From Escherichia phage kvi, in sequence record MN850615.1: a DNA stretch of 64,000 bases. The stretch is one strand, 5' to 3'. A model generated the notes under the pieces. That model was not told the origin of the DNA. It did not search any database and saw nothing but the letters and a program-made list of their open reading frames with translations. Numbering within the stretch: the first letter of the stretch is position 1; every line of letters begins with the position of its first letter. Positions 4,581-30,927 of this stretch are shown one piece after another. The position numbers and the translations under genes are program-made.

Positions 4581-5018
4581 TTATTTGTTGATAACGATCT
4601 GATTTCGGCGAATGGTAACATTACTCTTAGAGATGATCAGATCATCCGGCACTACGTTAGTTTTGTATGGTTGGAATCGAACAAGCATCTGATTGCGTTT
4701 AGACCCTTCCTTAATCTTGATTTCCATCTGGATATTGTTGCCTACGTGAGCAACCGCAATTTCACCTTTATTCTCATAGACCCACTTGCTGGTAACGTCT
4801 CCAGCAAAAGCCTTAATAACTTGCAATGCTTCGTCGTATGCGGTAGAGCTGTGAACTTTCAGAAGGCCAGCCGTAGCAAGACGGGAGCAGGTGATCGCCG
4901 GAGATTGCCAAACATCAACATTAATTTGCTCAATCAGAGTAACACCGCCCTGATCAACTGCTTTGAATGCTTCGAACATTGCCTTTTTCATTGCTACGTG
5001 GTTTTTACGGAATTTCAT
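4581..5018 (-). CDS. Hypothetical protein
   Basis: 145 aa; ATG with GAGGTG SD; no recognisable motif. Confidence 0.6.
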   Translation of the reverse strand: MKFRKNHVAMKKAMFEAFKAVDQGGVTLIEQINVDVWQSPAITCSRLATAGLLKVHSSTAYDEALQVIKAFAGDVTSKWVYENKGEIAVAHVGNNIQMEIKIKEGSKRNQMLVRFQPYKTNVVPDDLIISKSNVTIRRNQIVINK

Positions 5019-19122: not shown

Positions 19123-21174
19123 TTACATTTTAAATTTATCTGGCATTGCGTCTACAGATACCAGATCAGCGATAAGCTGACGTAGAGTTGCCTTATCTGC
19201 TTTCTTACGTTCGGTTTTAGCTTCGCTAATGAAGCTGGAGAAAGACAGGTCAGAAGCAGGTTTAACAACACCTTCACGGATGAATGCATCACCGTCCGCG
19301 ATCATCTCGCCAGATTCTTGTAATGCTGCCAGTTCATTTTTGTTCATAATATGTGCCTCAATGTAATAAGTTTCTTGTGAATCCGTCGATGCCGTAGCAC
19401 GAGTTACCGTATCAAAGGATAACACAACACCGCGAGGAAGTAAAATCTCGCATTCTTTGTAAGCAAATGCTTTGTTACCTACTGGCAAGACAGGGATGTT
19501 TTCCGCGCCAGCAATGGAGAAAGCAACATTAGCGCCACCTTCACCACGAGAGCCAGCCATAGAATCAACACCAGCAACGGCACTAGCCACGTTTGCATTC
19601 CAGCCGCCAAAAATGTTAGGTGCAAGGGAAGTGCTCACATAGTTTTTAAAGTAAAACGCTTTTTGCTTACGTGCAGTTTCCCACATTTGCGACCGGAAGT
19701 CCATACCACGATACAGAATAGTACCCGGATCAAGTTTAACTCCATAGTTGGAGAAGGCATTATCCAGTGCATCACACATCTTGACCAATTCTTCTGGATC
19801 TGCGATGCCTTCAAACTCTTCCAGCTTACGGTCGGTTAGGAAGTTGTTCATATTGATGTATGCTGCATCGGCATATTCGCTCAACACAAAACCTTCCGCG
19901 CCCGGCAGATCAAGATCAATATCTGCCATCATTTCACCCATGTTGCTAGCAATTGCTTCAAACATACCGGAAGCAACATTACGTAGGGCATCGGTTTTAA
20001 TCTGGGTGATGTGACTACGCAGCATTTCAGCTTTTACATCTGCTGGCATAGACTGGTCTACTCGATCCATTGCCAGGGCGGTGATCTTGTTTTCGAATAC
20101 TTCCTCGCTCATGATTTCTTTTAAGCGTTTGATTGATGCTGCGATAACTTCCGCAGACAATGGATCATATTGATCCTGAACTTTTACCAGTTCGCTTACT
20201 GCGTATTTTGCATCGGCTTCGCTTTCAAAAATAGTACGCATGAAACCATAGCGAGTGATAATATCACTTGTCCAGTCATTCAGAGAACGAGCGGTTGAAC
20301 GTTCTAAGGCTTGACGGTCAATCAGAGTATTAAACTGTTTCTTAGGTTCTGCTTCGGTGATATCTTCTTCCGGTTTAAGATTAATTTTTTCTGGATGATT
20401 CACATAGTCGCTGTTATAGGTCGCTTGAGTTTTCAGCATTTCTTCTTTAGTCAAACGAGATTTAGCCGCTACGCGTTGTTCTGCTTCCGCGTTTCGTTCT
20501 TCTTCTGACACAAGACTAGCCGCATATGCCTCATCTTTAGTCAGAGATTCACCAGTAGCCTTAGATACCCAGCGATCACCTAAATCACTTTCTACTTTAG
20601 TGAACAAGGATTCATCAAGTTTAATCCCTTTAATCTTATCAATCGCCATCCCGCGACGCTTGACAACAACTAAAGCGATCTTTTTGCTGGTCATTACTTC
20701 CTGCTGGAATACTTCAAACTTCGGTGTACGACGCACCAAACGCTCTATAACGCGCTTAACCAGTTCGGTCTTACCTTTCATGCGGGATACGTTAAAACGG
20801 AACATAACAGCGTCTAATTGCGCTTTACGGGCTGTTTCCATAACCACATCAAAAGCACTTGACATAACTGCAATCGGGTTATCGCCTAGACCATTTTTAA
20901 GCTGTACAATACGACCGCTTTTGTTCATTTCGCACAGTACAACATGTGCGGTCTTGTCACCCATACGAATGATTTTAGGTGTTTTGTTGGTGAAGTTACA
21001 AAGACGGACAATCACATCTTTATCGCGTGTCTGTACTGCAAAAAGCTGTTTAGGATTCTGCTTAGGCTTTAAGCACTGTACCGGAGCAATACTGCCAAAG
21101 TTTTCTTCCTCTTCCGTCAACAGCCATTTCTCGAAAGATTCAATCATTAGATCGTCGATTTCTAAGTTAAACAT
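19123..21174 (-). CDS. alt: Alt ADP-ribosyltransferase
   Basis: 683 aa (T4 Alt 682 aa); ILYRGMD, YVSTSLAPNIFGG, ECEILLPRG. Confidence 0.9.
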   Translation of the reverse strand: MFNLEIDDLMIESFEKWLLTEEEENFGSIAPVQCLKPKQNPKQLFAVQTRDKDVIVRLCNFTNKTPKIIRMGDKTAHVVLCEMNKSGRIVQLKNGLGDNPIAVMSSAFDVVMETARKAQLDAVMFRFNVSRMKGKTELVKRVIERLVRRTPKFEVFQQEVMTSKKIALVVVKRRGMAIDKIKGIKLDESLFTKVESDLGDRWVSKATGESLTKDEAYAASLVSEEERNAEAEQRVAAKSRLTKEEMLKTQATYNSDYVNHPEKINLKPEEDITEAEPKKQFNTLIDRQALERSTARSLNDWTSDIITRYGFMRTIFESEADAKYAVSELVKVQDQYDPLSAEVIAASIKRLKEIMSEEVFENKITALAMDRVDQSMPADVKAEMLRSHITQIKTDALRNVASGMFEAIASNMGEMMADIDLDLPGAEGFVLSEYADAAYINMNNFLTDRKLEEFEGIADPEELVKMCDALDNAFSNYGVKLDPGTILYRGMDFRSQMWETARKQKAFYFKNYVSTSLAPNIFGGWNANVASAVAGVDSMAGSRGEGGANVAFSIAGAENIPVLPVGNKAFAYKECEILLPRGVVLSFDTVTRATASTDSQETYYIEAHIMNKNELAALQESGEMIADGDAFIREGVVKPASDLSFSSFISEAKTERKKADKATLRQLIADLVSVDAMPDKFKM

Positions 21175-21214
21175 TTTATATCCTCTAGTTGATAACCTAT
21201 AAACCTATATTTAT

Positions 21215-21236
21215 GAAAAAGGGGCTTAACGCCCCC
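21215..21236 (-). terminator. Terminator closing the accessory early block
   Basis: GGGGC-TTAAC-GCCCC with flanking A/T runs. Confidence 0.5.
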
Positions 21237-21241
21237 ATTTA

Positions 21242-21454
21242 TTATAATGCACCATCGAGCAATTGCTCTAAGGTGTATCCTGAATAGTCTTTTTCAATAA
21301 GGGTATATTTTCCTACTCGTTTAATCCAGCCACGCATTTCAACGTATTCTGCGTAGTTGATGGTGCGAGTTGTTCCATCTTCCAGTAATGCAGTACCGAT
21401 TTCGTTAATGCGGTCATAAGTTACGTCGGTAATGATGATTTCGATGTTAGCCAT
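21242..21454 (-). CDS. Hypothetical protein
   Basis: 70 aa; AAGGAG SD; downstream of promoter at 21491. Confidence 0.5.
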   Translation of the reverse strand: MANIEIIITDVTYDRINEIGTALLEDGTTRTINYAEYVEMRGWIKRVGKYTLIEKDYSGYTLEQLLDGAL

Positions 21455-21490
21455 TTGATACTCCTTAGTAGTTCGTTTCGGTATGGGTGT

Positions 21491-21519
21491 ATTATGATAT
21501 ACACCATCTGTTATGTCAA
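21491..21519 (-). promoter_or_regulatory. Early promoter cassette (TTGACA-17-CATAAT)
   Basis: rc of TGTCAAC..ATTATG plus conserved leader CGAAACGAA..GGAG. Confidence 0.6.
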
Positions 21520-21525
21520 CAACTT

Positions 21526-21690
21526 TTAGAACATTTTTGAAATTAATTCTGCTTTGATTTCGCAGAGAACATCTAAAGATTTCTCGTCACCCGCTTTTGC
21601 TGCTTCTGCTTGCATTTTTGAAATGGCTTCAATGTCAGTGCAATTATAAGCCGCTTGAACTTTAGCGATTGCGATGATTAAGTGTTTCAT
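21526..21690 (-). CDS. Hypothetical small protein (54 aa)
   Basis: Not in track; AGGAGA SD; immediately downstream of promoter at 21723. Confidence 0.4.
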   Translation of the reverse strand: MKHLIIAIAKVQAAYNCTDIEAISKMQAEAAKAGDEKSLDVLCEIKAELISKMF

Positions 21691-21722
21691 GTTTGATTCT
21701 CCTTTCGTTTCGGTATGTGTGC

Positions 21723-21752
21723 ATTATGGGGGATCACCGATCCCCCTGTCAA
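21723..21752 (-). promoter_or_regulatory. Early promoter with palindromic spacer (PeSL-like)
   Basis: TTGACA-GGGGGATCGGTGATCCCC-CATAAT on - strand. Confidence 0.65.
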
Positions 21753-21759
21753 CAATTTT

Positions 21760-22278
21760 TTAGTTATTTTTTAATTGCTCATCTTGCAATAGGGCAATCA
21801 CATGCTGGCGATGTTCTTCCGATTGAGGCACACCGAAAAAGTTTGTTTTGTAGAAATACTCTAATCGGTCTTCTCGTGTGCTCTCTTCCATCATGATCGC
21901 GGGTAGTCCGAGATTTCTGAAACGTCGCTTTTCTGCTGGCGTAAAATCACTGTAATACAACATAGAATCATCATTACAAGCAATGCTAAACTCATCATTC
22001 ATAAAGGAGAATATTGCGTTTAAACGCTGTTTACCGTCCACGATTTCGATCTCATAGCGAGAGCCATCATCAATCTTAGCCATTGCGATAGCACCAACCG
22101 GAAAATCATTAATAAGGTTTTCGATAAACATACGTTTGTTTTCGGTGTCCCATACTAAAGGACGCTGATAATCTGGGTTCATGTTGATATAGCCATCTTC
22201 TAACCATGCATCATAAACAGAGATGACAAAGTTTTTAGTATTGGTATAGTAACGGCGTTTAGGCGTTAAACGGTTCAT
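21760..22278 (-). CDS. DUF262 / ParB-like (GmrSD N-terminal-type) domain protein
   Basis: 172 aa from ATG 22278; PDYQRPLVW and IVDGKQRLNAI match DUF262 signature; no nuclease domain. Confidence 0.6.
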   Translation of the reverse strand: MNRLTPKRRYYTNTKNFVISVYDAWLEDGYINMNPDYQRPLVWDTENKRMFIENLINDFPVGAIAMAKIDDGSRYEIEIVDGKQRLNAIFSFMNDEFSIACNDDSMLYYSDFTPAEKRRFRNLGLPAIMMEESTREDRLEYFYKTNFFGVPQSEEHRQHVIALLQDEQLKNN

Positions 22279-22279
22279 G

Positions 22280-22612
22280 TTATAGTCTCCTGAATGGATC
22301 ATCACGTAAATCAATATCTTTTAAGAACTCATCCCATGAATGCCGGATATTGTTCTTAATTCTCCAGATAAGCGCAGGGATTGAACGCTCTCCCATCTGG
22401 AAGTATGGATCATATGATCCGTATGCCCAATATGCTACTACAATTCCACAATCAGCGCAATAGTATTCTATTTCACTGGCTGGCGACCAAAGTCCATCAA
22501 TATGATCGGTGATCTTGCTTTCGATGTTATGGCTATGACAATCAGGGCAACGGATGCAATGACCTTGTTTATCGTAATTTGACGTTAGCGAATACTTAAA
22601 CAATCTCATCAT
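22280..22612 (-). CDS. Zinc-ribbon protein
   Basis: 110 aa; CIRCPDC ... CADCG; ATGATGA overlap with upstream gene. Confidence 0.55.
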   Translation of the reverse strand: MMRLFKYSLTSNYDKQGHCIRCPDCHSHNIESKITDHIDGLWSPASEIEYYCADCGIVVAYWAYGSYDPYFQMGERSIPALIWRIKNNIRHSWDEFLKDIDLRDDPFRRL

Positions 22613-23325
22613 AGATCCTTATTTGCTTCAAATACTGCCTTTGCGAATCCTCGCGGGGTAAGTGACCTGATAGTCTTTGTTTTCGTTCCTTTCCCGCCTA
22701 GCTTAGAATGCTGTTTACTGTACCCTTTATTAATCTGCAACGGTTTCTTTTCTGGCATTATAAAGCCTTGTCCGGTCCATAAGCAAGTCTTTTTCGGGTA
22801 CATATCACGGGCGGCGATATACTCAGGAAAAGTAGGATGTTTATCATCTTCCGGCAAATAACCGCCATATTCCCACGGGTGGAACATGTAATCAGGCTTA
22901 CGCCACATGCTAGAGATAACGCTTACAGGATTCTCTATCATGTAGGGAACTCCTAGCCATTCACCCAAATAAGCGGTTATTTTAGCTGCCCTTACATCAT
23001 GAACTTGAATCAATGGTCCTTGTTCTCGTTTCTTTCGTTCAAAGTGTGCAGCGCCACTAACAGCTAAATTGGTGCACGGTGGGAATGCAAAGATAATATC
23101 CGGTTTCCCCCATTCAAGGTCCATTGCTCTTTCCAGCCAGTTCAAATCAATCCAGGTGTTTACATAGGTAATGTTTGGATGTTCAAATCTGGTATTATAC
23201 TTTTTGTATGTGCCGTGGTCGCCATCATCAGCATTAAAGCAGATCACCTTATGACCTGCTTTAGCCCATTCTAGCCCCATTATCCCCGATCCGTCAAAGT
23301 TACAGAATATTAATTTTTGTTTCAT
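22609..23325 (-). CDS. Compact DNA C5-cytosine methyltransferase-like protein
   Basis: 238 aa; motif I FCNFDGSG, motif IV FPPCTN, motif VI MIENPV, C-terminal RSLTPRGFAKAV; very short variable region. Confidence 0.6.
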   Translation of the reverse strand: MKQKLIFCNFDGSGIMGLEWAKAGHKVICFNADDGDHGTYKKYNTRFEHPNITYVNTWIDLNWLERAMDLEWGKPDIIFAFPPCTNLAVSGAAHFERKKREQGPLIQVHDVRAAKITAYLGEWLGVPYMIENPVSVISSMWRKPDYMFHPWEYGGYLPEDDKHPTFPEYIAARDMYPKKTCLWTGQGFIMPEKKPLQINKGYSKQHSKLGGKGTKTKTIRSLTPRGFAKAVFEANKDL

Positions 23326-23567
23326 ATACGCCCCTTTAATCCAACACAGATTTTAGAAGGTTCTTTGCCGTGCCACATTAAGTAAAGTCCGTTAATGCGG
23401 CCTTGTTTTGTATATGATTCTTTTCTGATCTTCTTATAGTGTCGTGTTTCCTCAACTGATTGTTTAGAATACCAATCATAAAGGAAGAGGCACAAAGGCC
23501 AACCATTAGCGGCCTTAATGCAGTTATTAAGAAATTCCTTATTGCGTTTAATTAATTTTCTTTTCAC
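23322..23567 (-). CDS. Hypothetical protein (GTG start, translationally coupled)
   Basis: 81 aa; GTGA overlap with upstream stop. Confidence 0.4.
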   Translation of the reverse strand: MKRKLIKRNKEFLNNCIKAANGWPLCLFLYDWYSKQSVEETRHYKKIRKESYTKQGRINGLYLMWHGKEPSKICVGLKGRI

Positions 23568-23815
23568 GCTGCCCCCATTGGTTTGATAGTAACAGAATCT
23601 AAAAGACCTTTGTTAGCCAGTTCGCGGCAAGTTTTCAGATCCGCAACTTCCCAGCCAGCCGCAATCAGGTTATCAATGAGGCTGTTAGCAACTTCTTCGC
23701 TCATGAAAGAGCACTGTTTGCCGATGGTGTAGCGTACACGCTGTAATTTCAGTTTACGGAAGCCTTTAACGTTCAGGTCTTTAGCGATTTTCTTTGCGGT
23801 TTCGATGTTAGCCAT
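23564..23815 (-). CDS. Hypothetical protein (first gene of 5-gene operon)
   Basis: 83 aa; AGGAGA SD; preceded by promoter at 23856. Confidence 0.5.
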   Translation of the reverse strand: MANIETAKKIAKDLNVKGFRKLKLQRVRYTIGKQCSFMSEEVANSLIDNLIAAGWEVADLKTCRELANKGLLDSVTIKPMGAA

Positions 23816-23855
23816 TGTTTGATTCTCCTAAGTGGTATCTCGTCTTGATGGTTGT

Positions 23856-23884
23856 ATTGTAGGGGAGTTATCCTCCCCTGTCAA
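23856..23884 (-). promoter_or_regulatory. Early promoter with palindromic spacer
   Basis: TTGACA-GGGGAGGATAACTCCCC-TACAAT. Confidence 0.6.
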
Positions 23885-23898
23885 TACTTTTTATAAAA

Positions 23899-24066
23899 TT
23901 ATTTGTTAATTTCTGGTGCGTTGCTAGGATAGTAACCTTCTTTAACACCCAGATATTTTGCAACCATTCCTACAATCTTCTGTGCTACTACAATGTCAAA
24001 TTTCAGATAATCTTCGCCGTGGGTTTCAATGATATATGCTTCACATGCTGCTTTAGTCTCGAACAT
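23899..24066 (-). CDS. Hypothetical 55-aa protein, paralog A
   Basis: MFETKAACEAYIIETHGEDYLKFDIVVAQK...; near-identical to 27180..27347. Confidence 0.45.
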   Translation of the reverse strand: MFETKAACEAYIIETHGEDYLKFDIVVAQKIVGMVAKYLGVKEGYYPSNAPEINK

Positions 24067-24099
24067 TTTGATTCTCCTATTTCGTTTCGGTATGTGTGT

Positions 24100-24128
24100 A
24101 TTATAGGGGATCTCCCGATCCCCGTCAA
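24100..24128 (-). promoter_or_regulatory. Early promoter with palindromic spacer
   Basis: TTGACG-GGGATCGGGAGATCCCC-TATAAT. Confidence 0.65.
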
Positions 24129-24142
24129 CAACTTTTTTAAAA

Positions 24143-24424
24143 TTATTCGTGATTAGTTTCGATGTTGTACATTTTGCACCAGTTCAGCCAATCGCCCAGA
24201 TCTTGATAGTTGATGCTTTTATCTGCTGCCATCGTTTTTGTCTTGATACCCATATGTGCGTTATGAGTAAGCATTTTTACAGTGAACTCAATTTTATCGC
24301 CTTTAGCTTTAACATCAACCAGTTTGGTCCACTGGCTACCAGCGCCGCGAATGTTCATACCAACGATGTTTCCGATGTATGCTTCTTTGTTTTTCAGGAT
24401 TTCGGTTGCTTTGATGAATTTCAT
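24143..24424 (-). CDS. Hypothetical protein
   Basis: 93 aa; conserved leader/SD. Confidence 0.55.
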   Translation of the reverse strand: MKFIKATEILKNKEAYIGNIVGMNIRGAGSQWTKLVDVKAKGDKIEFTVKMLTHNAHMGIKTKTMAADKSINYQDLGDWLNWCKMYNIETNHE

Positions 24425-24457
24425 TTTTGATTCTCCAGTTCGTTTCGGTATGTGTGT

Positions 24458-24486
24458 ATTATGCTATGTTCTTACTTTGGTGTCAA
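24458..24486 (-). promoter_or_regulatory. Early promoter (TTGACA-17-CATAAT)
   Basis: rc of TGTCAA..ATTATG with conserved leader. Confidence 0.6.
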
Positions 24487-24494
24487 CAACTTTT

Positions 24495-24764
24495 TTAGAT
24501 ATTTTCAGAAATAAATTTTAAAACTTGACGTAAATGTTTCTCATCTTTGATAGACGCCGGAAGTTCTTCTTTTACTTCCTGTGCAAGATAGATATTTCCG
24601 TTCCAAGTGAAAGATCCGTCTTCGTTTACGCGATAGCTGAACATCCACTCGCAATCATTTTCGATTTCATATACACACAGAAGGGTGTAATCGTTAAAGC
24701 TATTGATTTCAAGGTCGAAGCCGTGACGTTTTGCAAAGTTGGTAGTGGTTTTAGTCAGCGCCAT
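24495..24764 (-). CDS. Hypothetical protein
   Basis: 89 aa; AGGAGA SD. Confidence 0.55.
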   Translation of the reverse strand: MALTKTTTNFAKRHGFDLEINSFNDYTLLCVYEIENDCEWMFSYRVNEDGSFTWNGNIYLAQEVKEELPASIKDEKHLRQVLKFISENI

Positions 24765-24804
24765 TGTTTGATTCTCCTAAGTGGTATCTCGTTTCGATGG
24801 GTGT

Positions 24805-24833
24805 ATTATGCTATAGGCGTGATCTGGTGTCAA
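24805..24833 (-). promoter_or_regulatory. Early promoter (TTGACA-17-CATAAT)
   Basis: rc of TGTCAA..ATTATG. Confidence 0.6.
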
Positions 24834-24854
24834 TGTTTTTTTTAATTTTATGCA

Positions 24855-24881
24855 ATAAAAAAGCCGACGCTAAGGTCGGCT
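24855..24881 (-). terminator. Rho-independent terminator (- strand)
   Basis: AGCCGAC-GCTAAG-GTCGGCT followed on - strand by TTTTTTATT. Confidence 0.6.
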
Positions 24882-24938
24882 AATAAAATCATTTAGACAA
24901 ATAATCATTCTGCGCAATCCGGTCGGCGTATGCTGGTG

Positions 24939-25196
24939 TTATGTCAATCGCCAGCACTTTAACGCGTGCTTTCTTACGACCTGGTTTTCTCGTAACCAGT
25001 GCTCATGACCGTGAACATTTTTATACTGCGATGCTTCTTCGAAGGTACGGATCGGACCTGGGTAATCAGCGTAAAGGATCTCTAGATCTTCGGTGATGTA
25101 AAAATATACATCATAATGGCTGTTCTCTAGTTTAAGCAGAGAGTTGCGAAATTGTGGTAAATTCTCGCGGGTAAATTCAACTACAAGATTTTTCAT
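24939..25196 (-). CDS. HxHW-family small protein, apparently frameshifted/truncated
   Basis: 85 aa from ATG 25196; family motif HGHEHW present but conserved VLAIDI tail is in another frame ending at 24889. Confidence 0.4.
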   Translation of the reverse strand: MKNLVVEFTRENLPQFRNSLLKLENSHYDVYFYITEDLEILYADYPGPIRTFEEASQYKNVHGHEHWLRENQVVRKHALKCWRLT

Positions 25197-25219
25197 AGTG
25201 ATATCCTCATTCAGATAGA

Positions 25220-25243
25220 TTAAAAGGGGGGCGTTAATCCCCC
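25220..25243 (-). terminator. Terminator-like hairpin
   Basis: GGGGG-CGTTAAT-CCCCC with A/T flanks. Confidence 0.4.
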
Positions 25244-25248
25244 ATATA

Positions 25249-25536
25249 TTAAAACAGTCCTTCCTGTACACCGTAGTAGAGTTCGTCGCTGATAATTTCA
25301 TTAATGCGACGGTGTGCATATTCCTGATTTGCGAAGTTGTCAGCAAGTTCTACTTTAGTTTCGCCGTCATGAGTCCATTTAGTGATAACTTTACCATCTG
25401 CAAATTTGAAGTTGAACTCTTTAGCTACTGCATCGCGTACCAGACGTGCGAACTTGTTGTTACGGATTGCATTGTCTGTTTCGTTTGCAGCGTGAGCAAA
25501 TTTGTTAACTTTCAGAGTGATAGTAATGTATGCCAT
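25249..25536 (-). CDS. Hypothetical protein (AKEFN family)
   Basis: 95 aa; RLVRDAVAKEFN; paralog of 28564..28875. Confidence 0.55.
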   Translation of the reverse strand: MAYITITLKVNKFAHAANETDNAIRNNKFARLVRDAVAKEFNFKFADGKVITKWTHDGETKVELADNFANQEYAHRRINEIISDELYYGVQEGLF

Positions 25537-25582
25537 AATTTTATTCTCCTAGTTAGAAAGTGTATCTCGTTTCGATGGGGAT

Positions 25583-25611
25583 ATTATGCTATATCCCCGA
25601 TCCGGTGTCAA
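25583..25611 (-). promoter_or_regulatory. Early promoter (TTGACA-17-CATAAT)
   Basis: rc of TGTCAA..ATTATG. Confidence 0.6.
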
Positions 25612-25617
25612 CACTTT

Positions 25618-25896
25618 TTATAAAATAATTTTTTGATATTTTTCTATGATGTTCGTGTAAGTCACATCAACCGCTAGCACCGTTGCTTCGAATCCACCGT
25701 TTAGCCAATGGCTATGATCATGATCGTGAAAGAAACCTAGACCAGTACGAAGACCTTCTTTATATTCTGCGCGTACATTCAGTTTGTCGTCGATAAACAG
25801 ATAAAACCATGAATTTTTACTAGGATTGATGATACAACCTTTCAGATTAGGGAGAATATCACGACTAAGAATAAACTTATCACCTACTTTGAACAT
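25618..25896 (-). CDS. HxHW-family small protein
   Basis: 92 aa; FHDHDHSHW..VLAVDV. Confidence 0.5.
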   Translation of the reverse strand: MFKVGDKFILSRDILPNLKGCIINPSKNSWFYLFIDDKLNVRAEYKEGLRTGLGFFHDHDHSHWLNGGFEATVLAVDVTYTNIIEKYQKIIL

Positions 25897-25900
25897 AATA

Positions 25901-26221
25901 TTAGTCCTCACTTATAAGGTCAAACCAATTGTTTTTCGCATAATGCTTAATGCGTGCTTGATCTGCTTCCGCTGGTGATAGATTCCATGCAACCACTACA
26001 ACTTCTGACGCATCGTCATCCGTTTCTGATACCCAATGATTGTGATTCATACAGTTATTTGCTATCGAGTGAGCAAATGATTTCATCACTGGAGACGTAT
26101 AATCATAGTAACGGATTTTCAGATTTTCATCAACGTACAAATAGATCGTATAAGGTTTATATTCAGTAACCAGTAACAGACAGTTACGCAATTCTGGGAA
26201 AATCTTTTTAGTTAATTTCAT
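25901..26221 (-). CDS. HxHW-family small protein
   Basis: 106 aa; NHNHW..VVVVAWN; N-terminus similar to 24939 member. Confidence 0.5.
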   Translation of the reverse strand: MKLTKKIFPELRNCLLLVTEYKPYTIYLYVDENLKIRYYDYTSPVMKSFAHSIANNCMNHNHWVSETDDDASEVVVVAWNLSPAEADQARIKHYAKNNWFDLISED

Positions 26222-26222
26222 T

Positions 26223-26441
26223 TTATAATCCTCGGTCGCGGCTATAGTACACGGTACGCCATACAATTTCATGTTTCGTGTCGCTCCAGCACACGATCTC
26301 ATTTACTCTTAAATCTTTGTTATCAACAAAAGATGAACATTGTGACGCTTCTTTCATCATTTTATATGCTGTTTTCTCATCAAATACAGCACAGATTTCT
26401 TTATACACTCGATAATCTTTGAATTGACTCTGGATACCCAT
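26223..26441 (-). CDS. Hypothetical protein (paralog pair with 26401..26658)
   Basis: 72 aa from ATG 26441; FKDYRVYKEI..KMMKEASQC. Confidence 0.45.
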   Translation of the reverse strand: MGIQSQFKDYRVYKEICAVFDEKTAYKMMKEASQCSSFVDNKDLRVNEIVCWSDTKHEIVWRTVYYSRDRGL

Positions 26442-26658
26442 AATTAACACCATTCCAACCAATTGTTTTTGAGAAAACGTTTATCCACTGTTGAGTGTAG
26501 CATGTTTCTTTCCATGATACAATACGAGTAGAATAATGGTTTTTGTTTCCAGAAAAGGACGGGCATTTTGATGCATCTTCCATCATCTTTTCGGCGAACT
26601 CTGGTGCGTATACTCGCAGGATCTGTTGATATGCTTTGTATTCTTTAAATTTGCTCAT
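26401..26658 (-). CDS. Hypothetical protein (paralog pair)
   Basis: 85 aa; FKEYKAYQQI..KMMEDASKC; 3' end overlaps next gene in another frame. Confidence 0.45.
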   Translation of the reverse strand: MSKFKEYKAYQQILRVYAPEFAEKMMEDASKCPSFSGNKNHYSTRIVSWKETCYTQQWINVFSKTIGWNGVNYGYPESIQRLSSV

Positions 26659-26923
26659 AATCATTCACTACCTTATCAGCTTCTTTTGTTGTTTTTACAT
26701 CAACTGCGATAACTCGTAAATGTTCGTCATGGTTCCACCAGTGGTCATGAATATCAGCTTGTGATTTATCACCAAAGGAATCACGAATATCATTTTTACA
26801 TTTATAGCTAATGTGACCTTCATAGTCAACATAAAGGTAATTATCGAAAATCGGCGTTTTTAAGATCATACCGAAAAATCTTTCTTTGTGTGTCTTATCC
26901 AGCGTTGCAGTAATTCGCATCAT
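26645..26923 (-). CDS. HxHW-family small protein
   Basis: 92 aa; IHDHWWNHDEHLRVIAVDV. Confidence 0.5.
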   Translation of the reverse strand: MMRITATLDKTHKERFFGMILKTPIFDNYLYVDYEGHISYKCKNDIRDSFGDKSQADIHDHWWNHDEHLRVIAVDVKTTKEADKVVNDYEQI

Positions 26924-26935
26924 AATATATTCCTC

Positions 26936-27115
26936 TTAGAAAGGGATGGTCATTTCTTGAGCTTGTACATTCTCGTTAGGATTAAACTTCATCCAACCGA
27001 TATTGTCTACCAGCATATGCACATTTTTATCATATCCTACGTGGGTAGTCAATACTGTATGTGCTTTACCTTCAATGATGAGTTCCATGTACTTCTGAAC
27101 TTCGATAGCTTTCAT
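26936..27115 (-). CDS. Hypothetical small protein (59 aa)
   Basis: Not in track; conserved leader; downstream of promoter at 27148. Confidence 0.4.
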   Translation of the reverse strand: MKAIEVQKYMELIIEGKAHTVLTTHVGYDKNVHMLVDNIGWMKFNPNENVQAQEMTIPF

Positions 27116-27147
27116 TTTGATTCTCCGTTTGTTGTCTTGATGGGAGT

Positions 27148-27176
27148 ATCTTACTACTCCCTTTAATCATTGTCAA
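27148..27176 (-). promoter_or_regulatory. Early promoter variant (TTGACA-17-TAAGAT) with hairpin over -10
   Basis: GGGAGTAGTAAGATACTCCC palindrome overlaps -10. Confidence 0.5.
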
Positions 27177-27179
27177 CTA

Positions 27180-27347
27180 TTATTTGTTAATTTCTGGTGC
27201 GTTGCTCGGATAGTAACCTTCTTTAACACCAAGATATTTTGCAACCATTCCGGTGATCTTCTGTGCTACTACGATATCGAATTTCAGGTAGTCTTCACCG
27301 TGGTTTGCTACAATGTACGCTTCGCATTCTGCTTTAGTCTGGAACAT
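27180..27347 (-). CDS. Hypothetical 55-aa protein, paralog B
   Basis: MFQTKAECEAYIVANHGEDYLKFDIVVAQK...; duplicate of 23899..24066. Confidence 0.45.
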   Translation of the reverse strand: MFQTKAECEAYIVANHGEDYLKFDIVVAQKITGMVAKYLGVKEGYYPSNAPEINK

Positions 27348-27381
27348 TTTTGATTCTCCTATATCTCGTTGGTATGTGTGC

Positions 27382-27410
27382 ATTATAGGGGATCGGTGAT
27401 CCCCTGTCAA
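27382..27410 (-). promoter_or_regulatory. Early promoter with palindromic spacer
   Basis: TTGACA-GGGGATCACCGATCCCC-TATAAT. Confidence 0.65.
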
Positions 27411-27415
27411 CAACT

Positions 27416-27709
27416 TTATAATGCTTTATATGCGTATTTCATAAATTTGTCTGCCACTTCATTGGCATGTTCAGATTCTACGCCTGATTCGAGAACAATA
27501 GCTAGGTCGGTTTCGTCATTCCCGCCGTACCAATGATTTGATGTTCGATTTTTTTCAATTGGAAATTGGTCACTTTTATCTGTGCGACAAAATACATCTA
27601 AATGCTCGTCGATGTAAAAGATCCAATCTTCATAAAGAATAACGGTATTAGAAAGATTTTTATTGCCTTCAACGAAAGGTTCGGCTACAAACAAATTAGT
27701 ATGTTCCAT
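27416..27709 (-). CDS. HxHW-family-like small protein
   Basis: 97 aa from ATG 27709; YIDEHLD..NHWYGG..LAIVLESGV; GAGGA SD. Confidence 0.45.
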   Translation of the reverse strand: MEHTNLFVAEPFVEGNKNLSNTVILYEDWIFYIDEHLDVFCRTDKSDQFPIEKNRTSNHWYGGNDETDLAIVLESGVESEHANEVADKFMKYAYKAL

Positions 27710-27725
27710 AGTATTTTCCTCAAAA

Positions 27726-27917
27726 TTATACAGCTTCGTAAACTTCCCAATGTCCAACACCAGCACGCTTAACGAAAAGGTTTTCTTTGATGTTATTCAT
27801 AAACGTCTGGATGGATTTAATGCGATTTGAAGGTTTCCAGTCTTCGTTGGCATTGCGTCGATACATCATAACATTACCAGTTCGCTTATATTCAGCAACC
27901 ATTTTAAGACCACACAT
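27726..27917 (-). CDS. Hypothetical protein
   Basis: 63 aa; GAGGA SD. Confidence 0.45.
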   Translation of the reverse strand: MCGLKMVAEYKRTGNVMMYRRNANEDWKPSNRIKSIQTFMNNIKENLFVKRAGVGHWEVYEAV

Positions 27918-27966
27918 AATATTATCCTCAATTTGTGGGAGAGTATTACCCCTCCCAATGATTGTT

Positions 27967-27995
27967 ATGTTATATCACACAAAATGGCGTGTCAA
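27967..27995 (-). promoter_or_regulatory. Putative early promoter (TTGACA-17-TAACAT)
   Basis: -35 lies within the 3' end of the upstream gene. Confidence 0.4.
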
Positions 27996-28295
27996 TGCTT
28001 CTTTTGCGGTTCCGCTAAGACTTTCGATCTCGCCTGGCATAACATCAACCGCCAGAACTTCTACAACATCCTCGGACCCTAACCAGTGAGTATGACCTTT
28101 GTAGAACTTAATAACCAGACTACCTTCCTCGTCCCATTTAACGCTATCGCTAGCCCACCACACATCACCGTCGATAAAGTTGATGTAAAGCACACTACGC
28201 CACATTGAATTAATTACTTTCAATACTGCGCCTTTCATCTCTTCCACGGTATGGTCTTCCATTTTGAAGACCTCACCTACCTGAACTTTTGCCAT
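27975..28295 (-). CDS. HxHW-family small protein
   Basis: 106 aa; GHTHWLGSEDVVEVLAVDV; GAGGTG SD. Confidence 0.5.
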   Translation of the reverse strand: MAKVQVGEVFKMEDHTVEEMKGAVLKVINSMWRSVLYINFIDGDVWWASDSVKWDEEGSLVIKFYKGHTHWLGSEDVVEVLAVDVMPGEIESLSGTAKEALTRHFV

Positions 28296-28312
28296 TTAGT
28301 CACCTCTCTTTA

Positions 28313-28492
28313 TTACATAACAATCACGCCAGCCGTTGAAAGTTGATGTTTCAACTGAGCATTTTCTGCTACCGTCAAATCAATGATTTCTTGTGACGCT
28401 GCAATCATATAGCCATTGGTGATATTGTTTTGCATCAGTTCAATGGTTTCTTCGTTGTAGCGGATTTTAGCGATGATTTCGTTGAAGTTCAT
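28313..28492 (-). CDS. Hypothetical small protein (59 aa)
   Basis: True ATG at 28492; track ORF is extended upstream through the promoter palindrome. Confidence 0.45.
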   Translation of the reverse strand: MNFNEIIAKIRYNEETIELMQNNITNGYMIAASQEIIDLTVAENAQLKHQLSTAGVIVM

Positions 28493-28526
28493 AATTGATT
28501 CTCCTAGTTCGTTTCGGTATGTGTGT

Positions 28527-28555
28527 AGTATAGGGGATCGGTGATCCCCTGTCAA
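28527..28555 (-). promoter_or_regulatory. Early promoter with palindromic spacer
   Basis: TTGACA-GGGGATCACCGATCCCC-TATACT. Confidence 0.6.
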
Positions 28556-28563
28556 CAACTTTT

Positions 28564-28875
28564 TTAAAGTTTTTCCATGATAACGGTCATAATTACATCT
28601 TCTGCGCGAGTGGTTAGATTATCAGCGTCAGCATGTGGGCGGTTGGTTGTTACAGAGATAACACCGTTGCGCACTGGTTTGATGTTGATATCAAGATGAT
28701 CCGCGAAACGTTCGCCAGTTACAGAATGAATTTTGGTGTTAAATTCTTTTGCCAGTGCCTTGCGAACTTCACGAATCAGGGTAGCGTTTTTCAGTTGGTT
28801 CTCCGCGCTCATGGTCTTCTGGGTGTTCATGGTTCCGTCGAAGTCAATCATTGGCAGCGTTACGATGTATTTCAT
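28564..28875 (-). CDS. Hypothetical protein (AKEFN family)
   Basis: 103 aa from ATG 28875; LIREVRKALAKEFN. Confidence 0.5.
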   Translation of the reverse strand: MKYIVTLPMIDFDGTMNTQKTMSAENQLKNATLIREVRKALAKEFNTKIHSVTGERFADHLDINIKPVRNGVISVTTNRPHADADNLTTRAEDVIMTVIMEKL

Positions 28876-28920
28876 TTTTGATTCTCCGTTTAAGAAAGTG
28901 TGTTTCGTTTTGATGTGTGT

Positions 28921-28949
28921 AGTATAGGGGATCACCGATCCCCTGTCAA
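28921..28949 (-). promoter_or_regulatory. Early promoter with palindromic spacer
   Basis: TTGACA-GGGGATCGGTGATCCCC-TATACT (loop inverted relative to 28527 copy). Confidence 0.6.
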
Positions 28950-28961
28950 CAACTTTTTGAA

Positions 28962-29438
28962 TTATTTTTCTTGATGCTCGCGATCGTACTTTTCGAAATA
29001 AAATTCTACTGGCTGGTCGTGGATTGACAGCAAGCCAAAGCGTTTAGCCGCTCGCAATCCCATATTGCGCTGAATGTACTTCTGGAAGTTCTCGCGTATA
29101 CACTTACGCCAGGATTCTAAGCCCATGCAGCTTTTATAAAGATTGCATTGCACACATGCCGGATTCATGTTATCAAGTATATCATGCTCCGGTTTATGCA
29201 TTCCTACAACCTTATACTTCCACGATCCATCATCATTACGGGCAATTCGTCCATTTTCATCATAGACAACCTTTGAGCGTCGTAATACTGGTTTGATATG
29301 GTCTGCGTGCCAGCGATCCCCTAGTTCCTCGCCACAATAGGCACAACGTCCACCGTATTTCATTTTCAGGATCTGACGTTGCTCTTTCTTTGACAATTTT
29401 TTAGGTTTAGGGGCTTTCGCCCCTTCATTATCACACAT
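28962..29438 (-). CDS. HNH endonuclease
   Basis: 158 aa; CAYCGE..WHADHIKPV..NMNPACVQCN; start overlaps ligase stop by 8 nt. Confidence 0.8.
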   Translation of the reverse strand: MCDNEGAKAPKPKKLSKKEQRQILKMKYGGRCAYCGEELGDRWHADHIKPVLRRSKVVYDENGRIARNDDGSWKYKVVGMHKPEHDILDNMNPACVQCNLYKSCMGLESWRKCIRENFQKYIQRNMGLRAAKRFGLLSIHDQPVEFYFEKYDREHQEK

Positions 29439-30927
29439 CGAATACCTCTTTTACTGTATTTGCAGCGGTCTTGTCGTAGCGAATACGTTTGATGATCGGG
29501 AGAAATAAAGAGAACTCCGGTTCATCTTCTTTACGTGATTTGCTGCGAATGTACCCGTTGCATGTCATCTCGATGACTTTTCCAATCAGGTTATGACGGT
29601 CAGCCCATAACATTTCTCGGTCAAGTTCATTTCGACGATCGAACGGAATTACACGTTCGATACCATCATCACCTTTTTCGGTTGTAGTGTCGGTTAATCC
29701 CGATCCGGTGTTAGTCATCATTCGTCCACACGCACTACGGACAGTAAAACCGCCTACCTTATTGGGGTCTTTACTATGCGGATATACATCAACAATTTCC
29801 GCGTCGAAGTCAATCACTTCTTTAAATTTAACCTGATCTTTACTACGGCGATCTTCAAATACACCATGTAAATTTTTAAGGATAATACCTTCTAAGCCCA
29901 TGTTGACATAACGATGATATACTTCGCGAGCTTCATCGATATTGTTAACTACAGTGTTTTCGATGATCTGAACACGAGGATCGTTAAGTTCTTCAACAAT
30001 CTGTTTTAGTTCTTCAAATCGATCTTTATATTGCTTCGTTGCTTTCTCGTTTCCGTAGTACACATCACGGTCGATAACATCCCAGACAGTGTAAACAATA
30101 CATTGGGCTTCTTCTTTTGGAATAGTTCCTTTCAGTGATTTGTTGAGGATACCATTTCCGGTCTGACGGTCTGCAACAACGGATTCTTTCACTGCTTCCG
30201 CTACTGGCGTTAATGGCATTTCCTCTTCTTCAAATATCCATGACAGAGTACCATCATAAACGCTCTCAACGAAGTTCTGCGCTGGTGTTTGCGAAAGGGT
30301 AGGCATATATACCAATTCACCATCTAGAACAATTCCACGGCCTCGTAGACGCTCTAAAACCGCAAACAAATCATCAAGTCCTTGATAGGTATTACCTGAG
30401 CGGGTATAGATTGCTAATGTTTCCCCGTCAATATCAGCCATACCACGAGCGCCATCGCTTTTAAGTTGTGCATACGCCGGATACTTGATATTAGCAATAG
30501 TCTTATCAGAACATGACGATGCAAGGTGACACGGTTGCTGGGGGATCAGTTTCTTCCATACCTTGTTTGCAGTGGTAGCGGAACAACCACATTCCAGATC
30601 ACGATTCAGGACCATCATTGCAACTTTAGCATCATCTTCTGACAAGCAAGTCAGAGTATCGGTAACTAGCTGTAATGCTGCGTTACCAGTTACTTGACGC
30701 GTGGCAAGTTTATTTTTAAAGACCTGTAATGCACCGGATAAAGACAATACAGACGAATAGCGAGATGGTTTATCGTATTTCTTTACGCCAAACGTAACCT
30801 GTTTGCAATATGCCAGATAAAAGCATTCTTTCAGTGTTTCATTGCTTGCAGATTCTTTCAGGATCTTTTCTTTCAGCGATGTTTTGTCGGTCGCTGCAAG
30901 CTGGTTAATGATATTAAGAATTGACAT
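29431..30927 (-). CDS. 30: ATP-dependent DNA ligase gp30
   Basis: 498 aa from ATG 30927; KVW..LIPQQP..LASS, AQLKSDGAR (KxDG), LDGELVY, EGIILKN, KFKEVID as in T4 ligase. Confidence 0.9.
   Translation of the reverse strand: MSILNIINQLAATDKTSLKEKILKESASNETLKECFYLAYCKQVTFGVKKYDKPSRYSSVLSLSGALQVFKNKLATRQVTGNAALQLVTDTLTCLSEDDAKVAMMVLNRDLECGCSATTANKVWKKLIPQQPCHLASSCSDKTIANIKYPAYAQLKSDGARGMADIDGETLAIYTRSGNTYQGLDDLFAVLERLRGRGIVLDGELVYMPTLSQTPAQNFVESVYDGTLSWIFEEEEMPLTPVAEAVKESVVADRQTGNGILNKSLKGTIPKEEAQCIVYTVWDVIDRDVYYGNEKATKQYKDRFEELKQIVEELNDPRVQIIENTVVNNIDEAREVYHRYVNMGLEGIILKNLHGVFEDRRSKDQVKFKEVIDFDAEIVDVYPHSKDPNKVGGFTVRSACGRMMTNTGSGLTDTTTEKGDDGIERVIPFDRRNELDREMLWADRHNLIGKVIEMTCNGYIRSKSRKEDEPEFSLFLPIIKRIRYDKTAANTVKEVFDV

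Follow-up and report, generated by a model that had tools for sequence, protein, structure and literature searches.

The two near-identical 55-aa genes found in the window, by which we mean the whole stretch of 64,000 nt of Escherichia phage kvi analysed here (record MN850615.1), are very probably an old pair of paralogs, orthologous to ORF191 and ORF205 of phages phi1 and RB49, which reside in separate cassettes and are shuffled by recombination between promoter-early stem-loops (PeSLs). Based on sequence comparison, the window, 98.3% identical to KFS-EC and 92.5% to phi1, is assigned to Krischvirus, as an RB49/phi1-like T4-type coliphage, and likewise corresponds to the alt-to-gene-30 hyperplastic region; the orthology of the two genes to ORF191 and ORF205 comes from a gene-by-gene map against phi1/RB49. 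No integrase was seen in the region, either in this map or in the list of ORFs. Several older paralog families are found in the same region of the window, and for this reason local duplication is considered common there.

Copy A (23899..24066, minus strand; ORF191) and copy B (27180..27347, minus strand; ORF205), both members of phrog_8009, share 49 of 55 residues, in agreement with the near-identity claimed in the original prediction, and the DNA identity of 85-90% that it had estimated over some 200 bp including the leader is likewise borne out. In fact, the coding sequences have 146 of 168 nt in common (86.9%), 15 of the 22 differences falling at third codon positions, and blastn of 23898..24135 against 27179..27417 returns, within the window, a single ungapped-like alignment of 240 nt (85.8%, E = 1e-74) that extends about 72 nt upstream of the ATG, into the promoter and leader, and ends 1-3 nt past the stop codon. 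The 168-bp coding parts and the PeSLs form direct repeats 3.28 kb apart. A search for further copies had also been proposed; tblastn detected no third copy of the gene in the window, and at least 51 Krischvirus records carry both. Under the first-start rule copy B may also be called as a 77-aa ORF from a TTG codon (27180..27413), which is an artefact of that rule; the real start is the ATG at 27347, located 8 nt behind a GGAG Shine-Dalgarno sequence, aligned with the start of copy A and annotated as the start in relatives. The phrog_8009 profile matches both proteins in full length (residues 1-55 of 55; E = 6.8e-38 and 1.2e-38), and more than 40 Krischvirus records contain the copy A protein with 100% identity. 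A Pfam scan of both proteins gave no family at E up to 1, the AlphaFold2 model (pLDDT 67) displays helices at residues 5-16 and 18-39 and a disordered tail, a Foldseek search of this model against BFVD and PDB returned nothing below E = 1, and a literature search with the locus tags and the PHROG identifier retrieved no paper.

Between A and B in the window dS is 0.68, dN 0.055 and omega (dN/dS) 0.08, and in relatives the A-B dS reaches 1.06, with a mean of 0.81, whereas among orthologs across the genus it amounts to 0.08 for A and 0.13 for B. Both copies occupy conserved positions in RB49, phi1, GEC-3S and most of the 58 Krischvirus records. Judged by these values, A and B are an old paralog pair, both under strong purifying selection. 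The state that preceded the duplication was seen in no sequenced relative.

A divergence between A and B so far above that found within the genus would also be expected if the two genes were xenologs and had not been duplicated within the genome, one of them being a diverged allele of the same ORFan that entered on a PeSL cassette or mini-circle from another phage during co-infection and became integrated at a PeSL already in place. The gene family does span phage families, since Swiduovirus and Skatevirus siphoviruses possess 51-aa homologs with 69-72% identity, located in different flanking DNA, and PeSL mini-circles are encapsidated and have been proposed as vectors of horizontal gene transfer (PMC2839356). 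Nevertheless, we hold such an origin to be unlikely, though deserving of consideration: A and B resemble each other (89% aa identity) much more than they do the siphovirus homologs (about 70%), the older paralog families of the region speak for local duplication, and no A-type or B-type donor lineage was found outside Krischvirus among 5.8 billion proteins and 1.8 billion representatives. The search of the 5.8 billion proteins yielded only 4 clusters, all of them near-identical or truncated/chimeric ORFs, and an exhaustive profile search of 1.84 billion representatives yielded 9 matches, about 4 of them real; full-length relatives seem to be confined to P0001, P0005 and P0007 among these 9, P0006 being a chimera and the remaining ones low-complexity stretches in long proteins. 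A metagenomic homolog, P0003, lies on a 7.6-kb contig with unannotated small ORFs beside PHP and 2-hydroxyacid dehydrogenase genes. The 55-aa protein is itself strongly conserved, kept in two copies and common to unrelated siphoviruses.

The elements upstream of A and B are identified as published PeSLs from their location, promoter, AT-rich tract, stem-loop, repetition and crossover places in the sequence. In published PeSLs the stem-loop, typically of the polyG...polyC type, takes one of five places with respect to the promoter, and conservation covers about 100 bp. PeSL193/191 (24067..24142, minus strand), between the ORF193 stop and the ORF191 ATG, has a -35 box TTGACG (24128..24123) and a -10 box TATAAT (24105..24100) separated by a 17-nt spacer (11 of 12 positions of the sigma-70 consensus), with the stem-loop GGGGATC-GGGA-GATCCCC (24123..24106, predicted MFE -15 kcal/mol) between the two boxes and, after the -10, a leader followed by a GGAG Shine-Dalgarno sequence; the same element is present in RB49 and in GEC-3S, where it is annotated as a promoter. 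PeSL206/205 (27348..27415, minus strand), between the ORF206 stop and the ORF205 ATG, matches the consensus at 12 of 12 positions (-35 TTGACA, 27410..27405; 17-nt spacer; -10 TATAAT, 27387..27382), and its stem-loop GGGGATC-ACC-GATCCCC (27404..27388) has a predicted energy of -17.8 kcal/mol (z = -3.0). The AT-rich tracts TTTTAAAAAAGTTG and ATTATAAAGTTG are located upstream of the A/B promoters. At the 3' end cassette A is bounded by PeSL191/190 (23816..23898, minus strand), with the stem-loop GGGGAG-GATAA-CTCCCC between -35 and -10 (-20.5 kcal/mol, z = -6), and cassette B by PeSL205/204 (27116..27179, minus strand), which belongs to another PeSL subclass and has its stem-loop GGGAGTA..TACTCCC over the -10. 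Besides the two 55-aa genes, about 12 other sites of the window display the PeSL anatomy, PeSL repeat families (D1-D5, D9-D10) stand in front of many unrelated genes, and sigma-70 -35/-10 sites number 27 against 2.8 expected. An Rfam scan of 21000-30000 found no family at E up to 1. A lacZ fusion of phi1 PeSL206/205 gave about 13,000 Miller units, which makes it a strong promoter, terminator activity was reported for phi1 PeSL211/210, and a PeSL stem-loop terminates on a par with rrnB T1; RB49 PeSL193/192 was also cloned, and activity is given only for the wild-type PeSL206/205 clone (PMC2839356). These promoter and terminator values belong to phi1/RB49 elements, and for the window phage the activities are predicted from orthology.

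Natural variants of the locus are found among the relatives. In Cognac and FL04 the 3.3 kb between the copies (ORF204-193) is gone and one chimeric cassette remains, composed of the upstream context of B and the coding sequence and downstream context of A; Cognac crossed over in the leader/start region, FL04 within the stem-loop. We rejected the reading of this arrangement as the ancestral single-copy state, given the sharp mosaic of B upstream and A coding sequence; the FL04 coding sequence is 100% identical to phi1 A at the nucleotide level, and because of this identity the single-copy state is regarded as derived. JK32 and Brandy precisely lack copy A and retain one chimeric PeSL, its 5' half from PeSL193/191 and its 3' half from the PeSL191/190 leader, and in RB49 ORF192 is inserted at the AT-rich edge of the PeSL of A. 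Mini-circles with ORFs 191-194 of RB49 have been recovered, the crossover having joined the PeSLs of the 190-191 and 194-195 intergenic spaces (PMC2839356). Within copy A of the window a B-like tract covers at least 23947..23968 (minus strand; nt 99-120 of the coding sequence) and includes five contiguous diagnostic sites, at all of which A-specific bases are found in copy A of phi1, RB49, GEC-3S and FL04; a second tract comprises six diagnostic sites in Brandy B. On the evidence of these 5-6 sites in 9 genomes, both tracts are read as putative gene conversion between the paralogs.

The original prediction had taken the region for a recent, single duplication of a whole promoter-leader-gene cassette, of which the 85-90% identity would be the remnant. 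A continuous alignment of 240 nt at 85.8% over promoter, leader and coding sequence is in accordance with this account, which we nonetheless consider highly improbable. The A-B dS of 0.68-1.06 compares with about 0.1 among orthologs, the positions of both copies are fixed genus-wide, and part of the A/B identity in the window is supplied by the later conversion tract. Moreover, the upstream elements of A and B, 83% identical in the identity matrix, are nearer to PeSLs of unrelated genes than to their supposed twin: PeSL210/209 (28493..28563, minus strand), before the unrelated ORF209, is the closest relative of both, with 89% identity to the element of A and 85% to that of B, and the ORF186 ortholog is preceded by a PeSL of the same subfamily (21691..21759, minus strand) with 85% and 81% identity, respectively. 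The leader of copy A is essentially of the ORF209/ORF193 type and that of copy B is unique, loop and leader variants swap positions among the orthologous PeSLs of relatives, and the 3' flanks (PeSL191/190 against PeSL205/204) share 61%, which is background. Neither a dS at or below ortholog divergence nor homology into both flanks, as expected of a recent segmental duplication, was observed. Only the coding sequence is specific to the pair, the similarity of promoter and leader being attributed to PeSL family membership and concerted evolution and bearing no trace of the duplication. The pattern named beforehand as contradicting the duplication of a cassette, identity confined to the coding part, is in substance what these comparisons give. 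It follows that the genes are paralogs, each in a cassette, as had been proposed, while their recent origin has to be abandoned and a joint move of promoter, leader and gene is not demonstrable; the notion of cassettes as units of recombination is that of the published PeSL model (PMC2839356) and is supported by the variants in Cognac, FL04, JK32 and Brandy. The original duplication event cannot be traced back: the flanks have undergone homogenisation, and no sequenced relative retains a state from before it. That the repeat is instead a non-coding regulatory element or a chance ORF, as the very short ORFs with neither a Pfam match nor a confident fold might suggest, has a negligible probability and was rejected in view of the omega of 0.08, the prevalence of third-position differences, the correctly spaced Shine-Dalgarno sequence, the full-length phrog_8009 match (E = 1e-38) and the conservation of the protein in unrelated siphoviruses with different flanks.

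For the old ORF191/ORF205 paralog pair in PeSL cassettes we propose the following mechanism. Each gene constitutes a separate early-gene cassette that opens with its own PeSL, in the order AT-rich tract, sigma-70 -35 and -10 with a G-rich/C-rich spacer hairpin, conserved leader and GGAG Shine-Dalgarno sequence, and closes at the next PeSL. The PeSL is expected to drive the early transcription of its own gene and the hairpin to attenuate upstream read-through, as experiments on orthologous or sister elements have shown. Because some 70-100 bp of PeSL sequence recurs before many unrelated genes, the homologous recombination machinery of the phage can cross over between PeSLs, and these crossovers lead to excision, insertion, duplication or deletion of whole ORFs. 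Long ago, re-insertion of an excised cassette or unequal exchange between PeSLs most likely produced the second copy, and since then the A/B coding repeats, together with the PeSLs, have probably behaved as direct repeats, giving rise to short conversion tracts and, in some lineages, to deletion of the intervening DNA. In nine close relatives the 3-nt loop of the GGGGATC-NNN-GATCCCC hairpin alternates between ACC and GGT, its exact reverse complement, at four orthologous PeSLs, and the stem-loop is where at least one deletion found in nature (FL04) and a mini-circle junction from the literature are located. We may speculate, as a rather improbable option, that recombination or inversion takes place actively at this hairpin in a structure-specific manner, for instance through cutting of, or template switching at, a cruciform or hairpin by a phage enzyme, in which case the 55-aa genes would be the cargo of a site-directed cassette system and not of general homologous recombination.

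A paralog pair in PeSL cassettes is an already known kind of phage gene shuffling. The PeSL/ORFan cassettes of RB49 and phi1 (Arbiol et al. 2010, Genome Biol Evol 2:140, PMC2839356) come from the same genus and hyperplastic region, include the elements orthologous to those of the window (PeSL206/205, PeSL193/191, which equals 193/192 plus 192/191 in RB49, PeSL191/190 and PeSL210/209), and display the same anatomy (AT-rich tract, -35, G-rich/C-rich hairpin, -10, leader and Shine-Dalgarno sequence) and the same crossover places (AT-rich tract, loop, and between -10 and ATG). A term search of the main text of that paper found no mention of the ORF191/ORF205 paralogy, nor of deletions by, or conversion between, two paralogous cassettes; the paralogy, inter-cassette deletions and conversion proposed here derive from the present comparisons. 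Likewise, in the PeSLs of T4/PST and KVP40/nt-1 (Comeau, Arbiol and Krisch 2014, Genome Biol Evol 6:1611, PMC4122927), composite promoter/terminator motifs are described as flanking variable ORFs and as homologous exchange points in hyperplastic regions, although in other genera and with other PeSL sequences. From the letters of the sequence alone, the original prediction had found again the cassette architecture of PeSLs in RB49-like phages. A paralog pair that acts as a direct repeat, and whose probable outcomes are the exact loss of a cassette, conversion tracts and a 3.3-kb deletion that leaves chimeric cassettes, offers a small and concrete illustration of PeSLs and helps to explain the gain and loss of small early genes in T4-type hyperplastic regions. 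Integron gene cassettes consist of an ORF and an attC hairpin, have circular intermediates, as a rule lack a promoter and depend on a dedicated tyrosine integrase. By analogy, both kinds of cassette may be viewed as single-ORF modules bounded by hairpin-forming repeats, excised as small circles and re-inserted at like sites. To our knowledge PeSL cassettes have no dedicated recombinase and, unlike those of integrons, they carry their own promoter and general phage homologous recombination is enough to move them.

Copies A and B of the 55-aa gene are 168-nt ORFs on the minus strand, at 23899..24066 and 27180..27347, precisely where the original prediction had placed them. The region 23000-28500 matches Escherichia virus KFS-EC at 98.3% identity and over 50 further Krischvirus genomes (phi1, GEC-3S and JSE among them) at 92-97%. 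On the annotated maps of phi1 and RB49, copy A corresponds to ORF191 and copy B to ORF205, both in the run of small leftward genes that separates alt from the gene 30 DNA ligase. The coding sequences are identical at 146/168 nt (86.9%) and the proteins at 49/55 residues, with 13 synonymous and 6 non-synonymous codon differences and 15 of the 22 nucleotide differences in third codon positions. A single 240-nt blastn alignment spans coding sequence and upstream region at 85.8% identity (A 23898..24135, B 27179..27417, E = 1e-74), in agreement with the 85-90% anticipated for some 200 bp, leader included, and the similarity stops 1-3 nt past the stop codon. Copy B as a 77-aa TTG ORF was rejected as an artefact of the first-start rule in ORF calling; its true start is the ATG at 27347, preceded by a Shine-Dalgarno within TAGGAGAATCAAAA. 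No third copy was detected by tblastn within the 64 kb.

Both proteins align end to end with phrog_8009, a family annotated as of unknown function, and Pfam yielded no family for either; dozens of genomes list the two genes as coding for hypothetical proteins. The AF2 model (pLDDT 67) has one helix at residues 5-16, a second at 18-39 and a tail, YYPSNAPEINK, that is conserved yet disordered; a fold search with this model returned no significant matches. Homologs of 51 aa, 69-72% identical, occur in Swiduovirus swi2 (locus L006:3001-3156) and Skatevirus SeSz-2 (L007:3001-3156), ~45-kb siphoviruses, in a small rightward two-gene insert flanked by the leftward large-terminase gene and a portal-side block of small leftward genes, and no GGGG/CCCC PeSL (promoter-early stem-loop) lies upstream of them. 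This ORFan is common to unrelated phage families.

Three genes downstream of copy A lies the ORF189 ortholog (238 aa; 22609-23325, minus strand), which relatives list as a DNA (cytosine-5, Dcm-like) methyltransferase. ORF197, ORF199, ORF200, ORF203 and ORF208 (24939-25247, 25618-25896, 25901-26221, 26645-26923 and 27975-28295) form an older paralog family, 27-35% identical, with a common HxHW...(L/I)AVDV motif, and the tandem ORF201 and ORF202 (26223-26423 and 26401-26664), 39% identical, form another. Local gene duplication is therefore recurrent in this region, and ORF191/205 is its least diverged paralog pair.

The elements preceding A and B are PeSLs as in phi1 and RB49 (PMC2839356), in which an AT-rich tract, a sigma-70 promoter, a polyG/polyC stem-loop in one of five positions, a Shine-Dalgarno and an ATG are combined; about 50 occur per genome, mostly in hyperplastic regions and preceding ORFans (Arbiol et al. 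2010, PMC2839356). On the coding strand they read AAAAAAGTTG-TTGACG-GGGATCGGGAGATCCCC-TATAAT-ACACACATACCGAAACGAAATAGGAGAATCAAA-ATG for A and TATAAAGTTG-TTGACA-GGGGATCACCGATCCCC-TATAAT-GCACACATACCAACGAGATATAGGAGAATCAAAA-ATG for B, with 11/12 and 12/12 matches to the sigma-70 consensus, 17-nt spacers and, inside each spacer, a 7-bp G/C-rich hairpin folding at -15 (A) and -17.8 (B) kcal/mol. All sequence-testable defining features of PeSLs were found at both elements, which are orthologous to published, assayed PeSLs. In GEC-3S, promoters were annotated independently at these very positions, and an Rfam scan of the region gave no family. In the window, TTGAC-N18-TATAAT with one mismatch allowed occurs at 27 sites vs 2.8 expected, nearly all on the minus strand, and about a dozen such elements cluster into families D1-D5, D9 and D10 in a repeat search. 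With T4 as a guide, the GGAG Shine-Dalgarno sequences would be candidate targets of the RegB endoribonuclease, which would fit early-only expression. In predicted RNA folds the AT-rich/-35 flank pairs with the -10 box and so lengthens the hairpins, as GCAUUAUA...UAUAAUGC in PeSL206/205 (27382-27425) and GUAUUG...CAAUAC in PeSL191/190 (23856-23890), and, if single-stranded, such folds would sequester the promoter hexamers.

In order to assess whether promoter and leader had moved with the gene, as originally proposed, each PeSL in the window was taken from the ATG back to 12 nt before the -35, and all pairs were globally aligned. The upstream region of A is 83% identical to that of B, vs 89% to the PeSL of the unrelated ORF209 (28493..28563) and 85% to that at 21691..21759; B scores 85% and 81% against the same two elements. 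Local blastn concurs (82 nt at 89% to 28495..28575; 73 nt at 87.7% to 21692..21761). A's leader ACACACATACCGAAACGAA recurs almost unchanged in the PeSLs of ORF209, ORF193 and the ORF186 ortholog; B's leader, …CCAACGAGATA…, is unique. The predicted upstream similarity is thus real but PeSL-family-wide, and the 3' flanks are not alike: the PeSLs downstream of A and B are 61% identical, which is background, and differ in stem-loop subclass. Similarity specific to the two loci is limited to the coding sequence (repeat family D6, 172 nt), and flank similarity is a property of the PeSL family. Among nine relatives, loop and leader variants shift between orthologous PeSL positions, A's GGGA loop being carried by the ORF209 PeSL in phi1 and GEC-3S; accordingly, PeSLs evolve in concert and do not record duplication history.

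Contrary to what had been supposed, the duplication is not recent. In the window dS between A and B is 0.68, with dN = 0.055 and omega = 0.08 (Nei-Gojobori), and over nine genomes it averages 0.81 and reaches 1.06, vs 0.08 within A orthologs and 0.13 within B orthologs. The low omega shows that both copies are functional genes. By tblastn the family occurs in 65 phage records, with two copies in ~51 Krischvirus genomes and a single copy in seven listed records, and in the window, phi1, RB49 and GEC-3S each type keeps its own position and PeSL type. The duplication, or acquisition of a second allele, is older than the Krischvirus diversity sampled. That a diverged allele was imported from another phage, instead of duplication within the genome, is rather unlikely: the family does occur in Swiduovirus and Skatevirus, at ~70% identity and without a GGGG/CCCC PeSL, but none of the homologs outside the genus sides specifically with A or with B, and the family is very small. 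As for in-genome duplication, the second copy probably arose when an excised PeSL cassette was re-inserted or through an unequal exchange between PeSLs.

Part of the identity originally noted is probably secondary homogenisation. At 29 variable coding sites, about 26 of them diagnostic, A of the window is B-like at the final five diagnostic sites (nt 99-120), where A of phi1, RB49, GEC-3S and FL04 is not, and B of Brandy is A-like at six sites in a row (nt 51-75). Were such bases placed at random among the ~26 sites, contiguous runs like these would have probabilities near 3e-4 and 9e-5, which indicates conversion tracts.

That cassettes are units of recombination is borne out by the relatives. 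Cognac and FL04 have a single copy in the order …ORF207-ORF206-[55 aa]-ORF190…, so that ORF204 to ORF193 (~3.3 kb) is missing. In a four-way alignment Cognac is B-like across the ORF206 3' end, -35 region and leader and A-like from the Shine-Dalgarno-to-ATG spacer on, and FL04 switches from B-like to A-like within the hairpin; these chimeric cassettes result from two independent crossovers between direct repeats. The single copy as ancestral state was rejected, since the FL04 coding sequence is 100% identical to phi1 A, and this state is derived. In JK32 and Brandy, ORF190 directly follows ORF193 with one chimeric PeSL between them, matching PeSL193/191 up to ...TATACTACACACAT and then the PeSL191/190 leader CAAGACGAGATACTACTTAGGAGAATCAAACAATG; this junction is exactly what the mini-circle model predicts for a clean excision, or an empty site. 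MIZ4 has a larger deletion bounded by PeSLs, from ORF191 to about ORF186. Further cassettes of this region differ in presence: ORF210, which the window has (28564-28875), is absent in Brandy and JK32, where ORF209 directly follows ORF212 (L005 and L010, about 4767-4844), and the window lacks ORF192 of RB49 (presence/absence loci include L008:4449-4925).

Depending on which of nine close relatives is considered, the 3-nt hairpin loop reads either ACC or GGT, its exact reverse complement, at the PeSLs upstream of ORF205, ORF209, ORF210 and the ORF186 ortholog (27388-27404, 28533-28549, 28927-28943 and 21729-21747; orthologous sites in L001-L010), while the palindromic stem GGGGATC/GATCCCC, with a GATC (Dam) site in each arm, stays constant; GGGA and ATC loops likewise shift between positions. 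These flips suggest hairpin inversion or frequent PeSL-to-PeSL conversion. Together with the crossovers inside the stem-loop they lead to the reading of the hairpin as an active recombination or inversion site, which we regard as very improbable.

PeSL cassettes and ORFan shuffling are already known. Arbiol et al. (2010) worked on this same region, and orthologous PeSLs act as strong early promoters and efficient terminators, with ~13,000 Miller units for a lacZ fusion of PeSL206/205, the promoter of B, and termination equal to rrnB T1 for the stem-loop of PeSL211/210 (PMC2839356). PeSL-by-PeSL exchange yields circles carrying ORF191; encapsidated mini-circles with ORFs 191-194, from a crossover between PeSLs of the 190-191 and 194-195 intergenic spaces, were recovered by inverse PCR, and mini-circles were demonstrated for the ORFans ORF210 and ORF192, the latter flanked by PeSLs in RB49 and missing in phi1 (PMC2839356). 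A term search of the main text of the 2010 paper gave no mention of the ORF191/ORF205 paralogy (PMC2839356), and a literature search for the locus tags gave no citing paper; paralog-mediated deletion and conversion tracts are therefore small additions. For this pair the present analysis shows the anatomy, orthology, family-wide promoter/leader similarity, age and purifying selection, together with the deletions, excisions and conversions found in natural relatives, whose crossover intervals were mapped.
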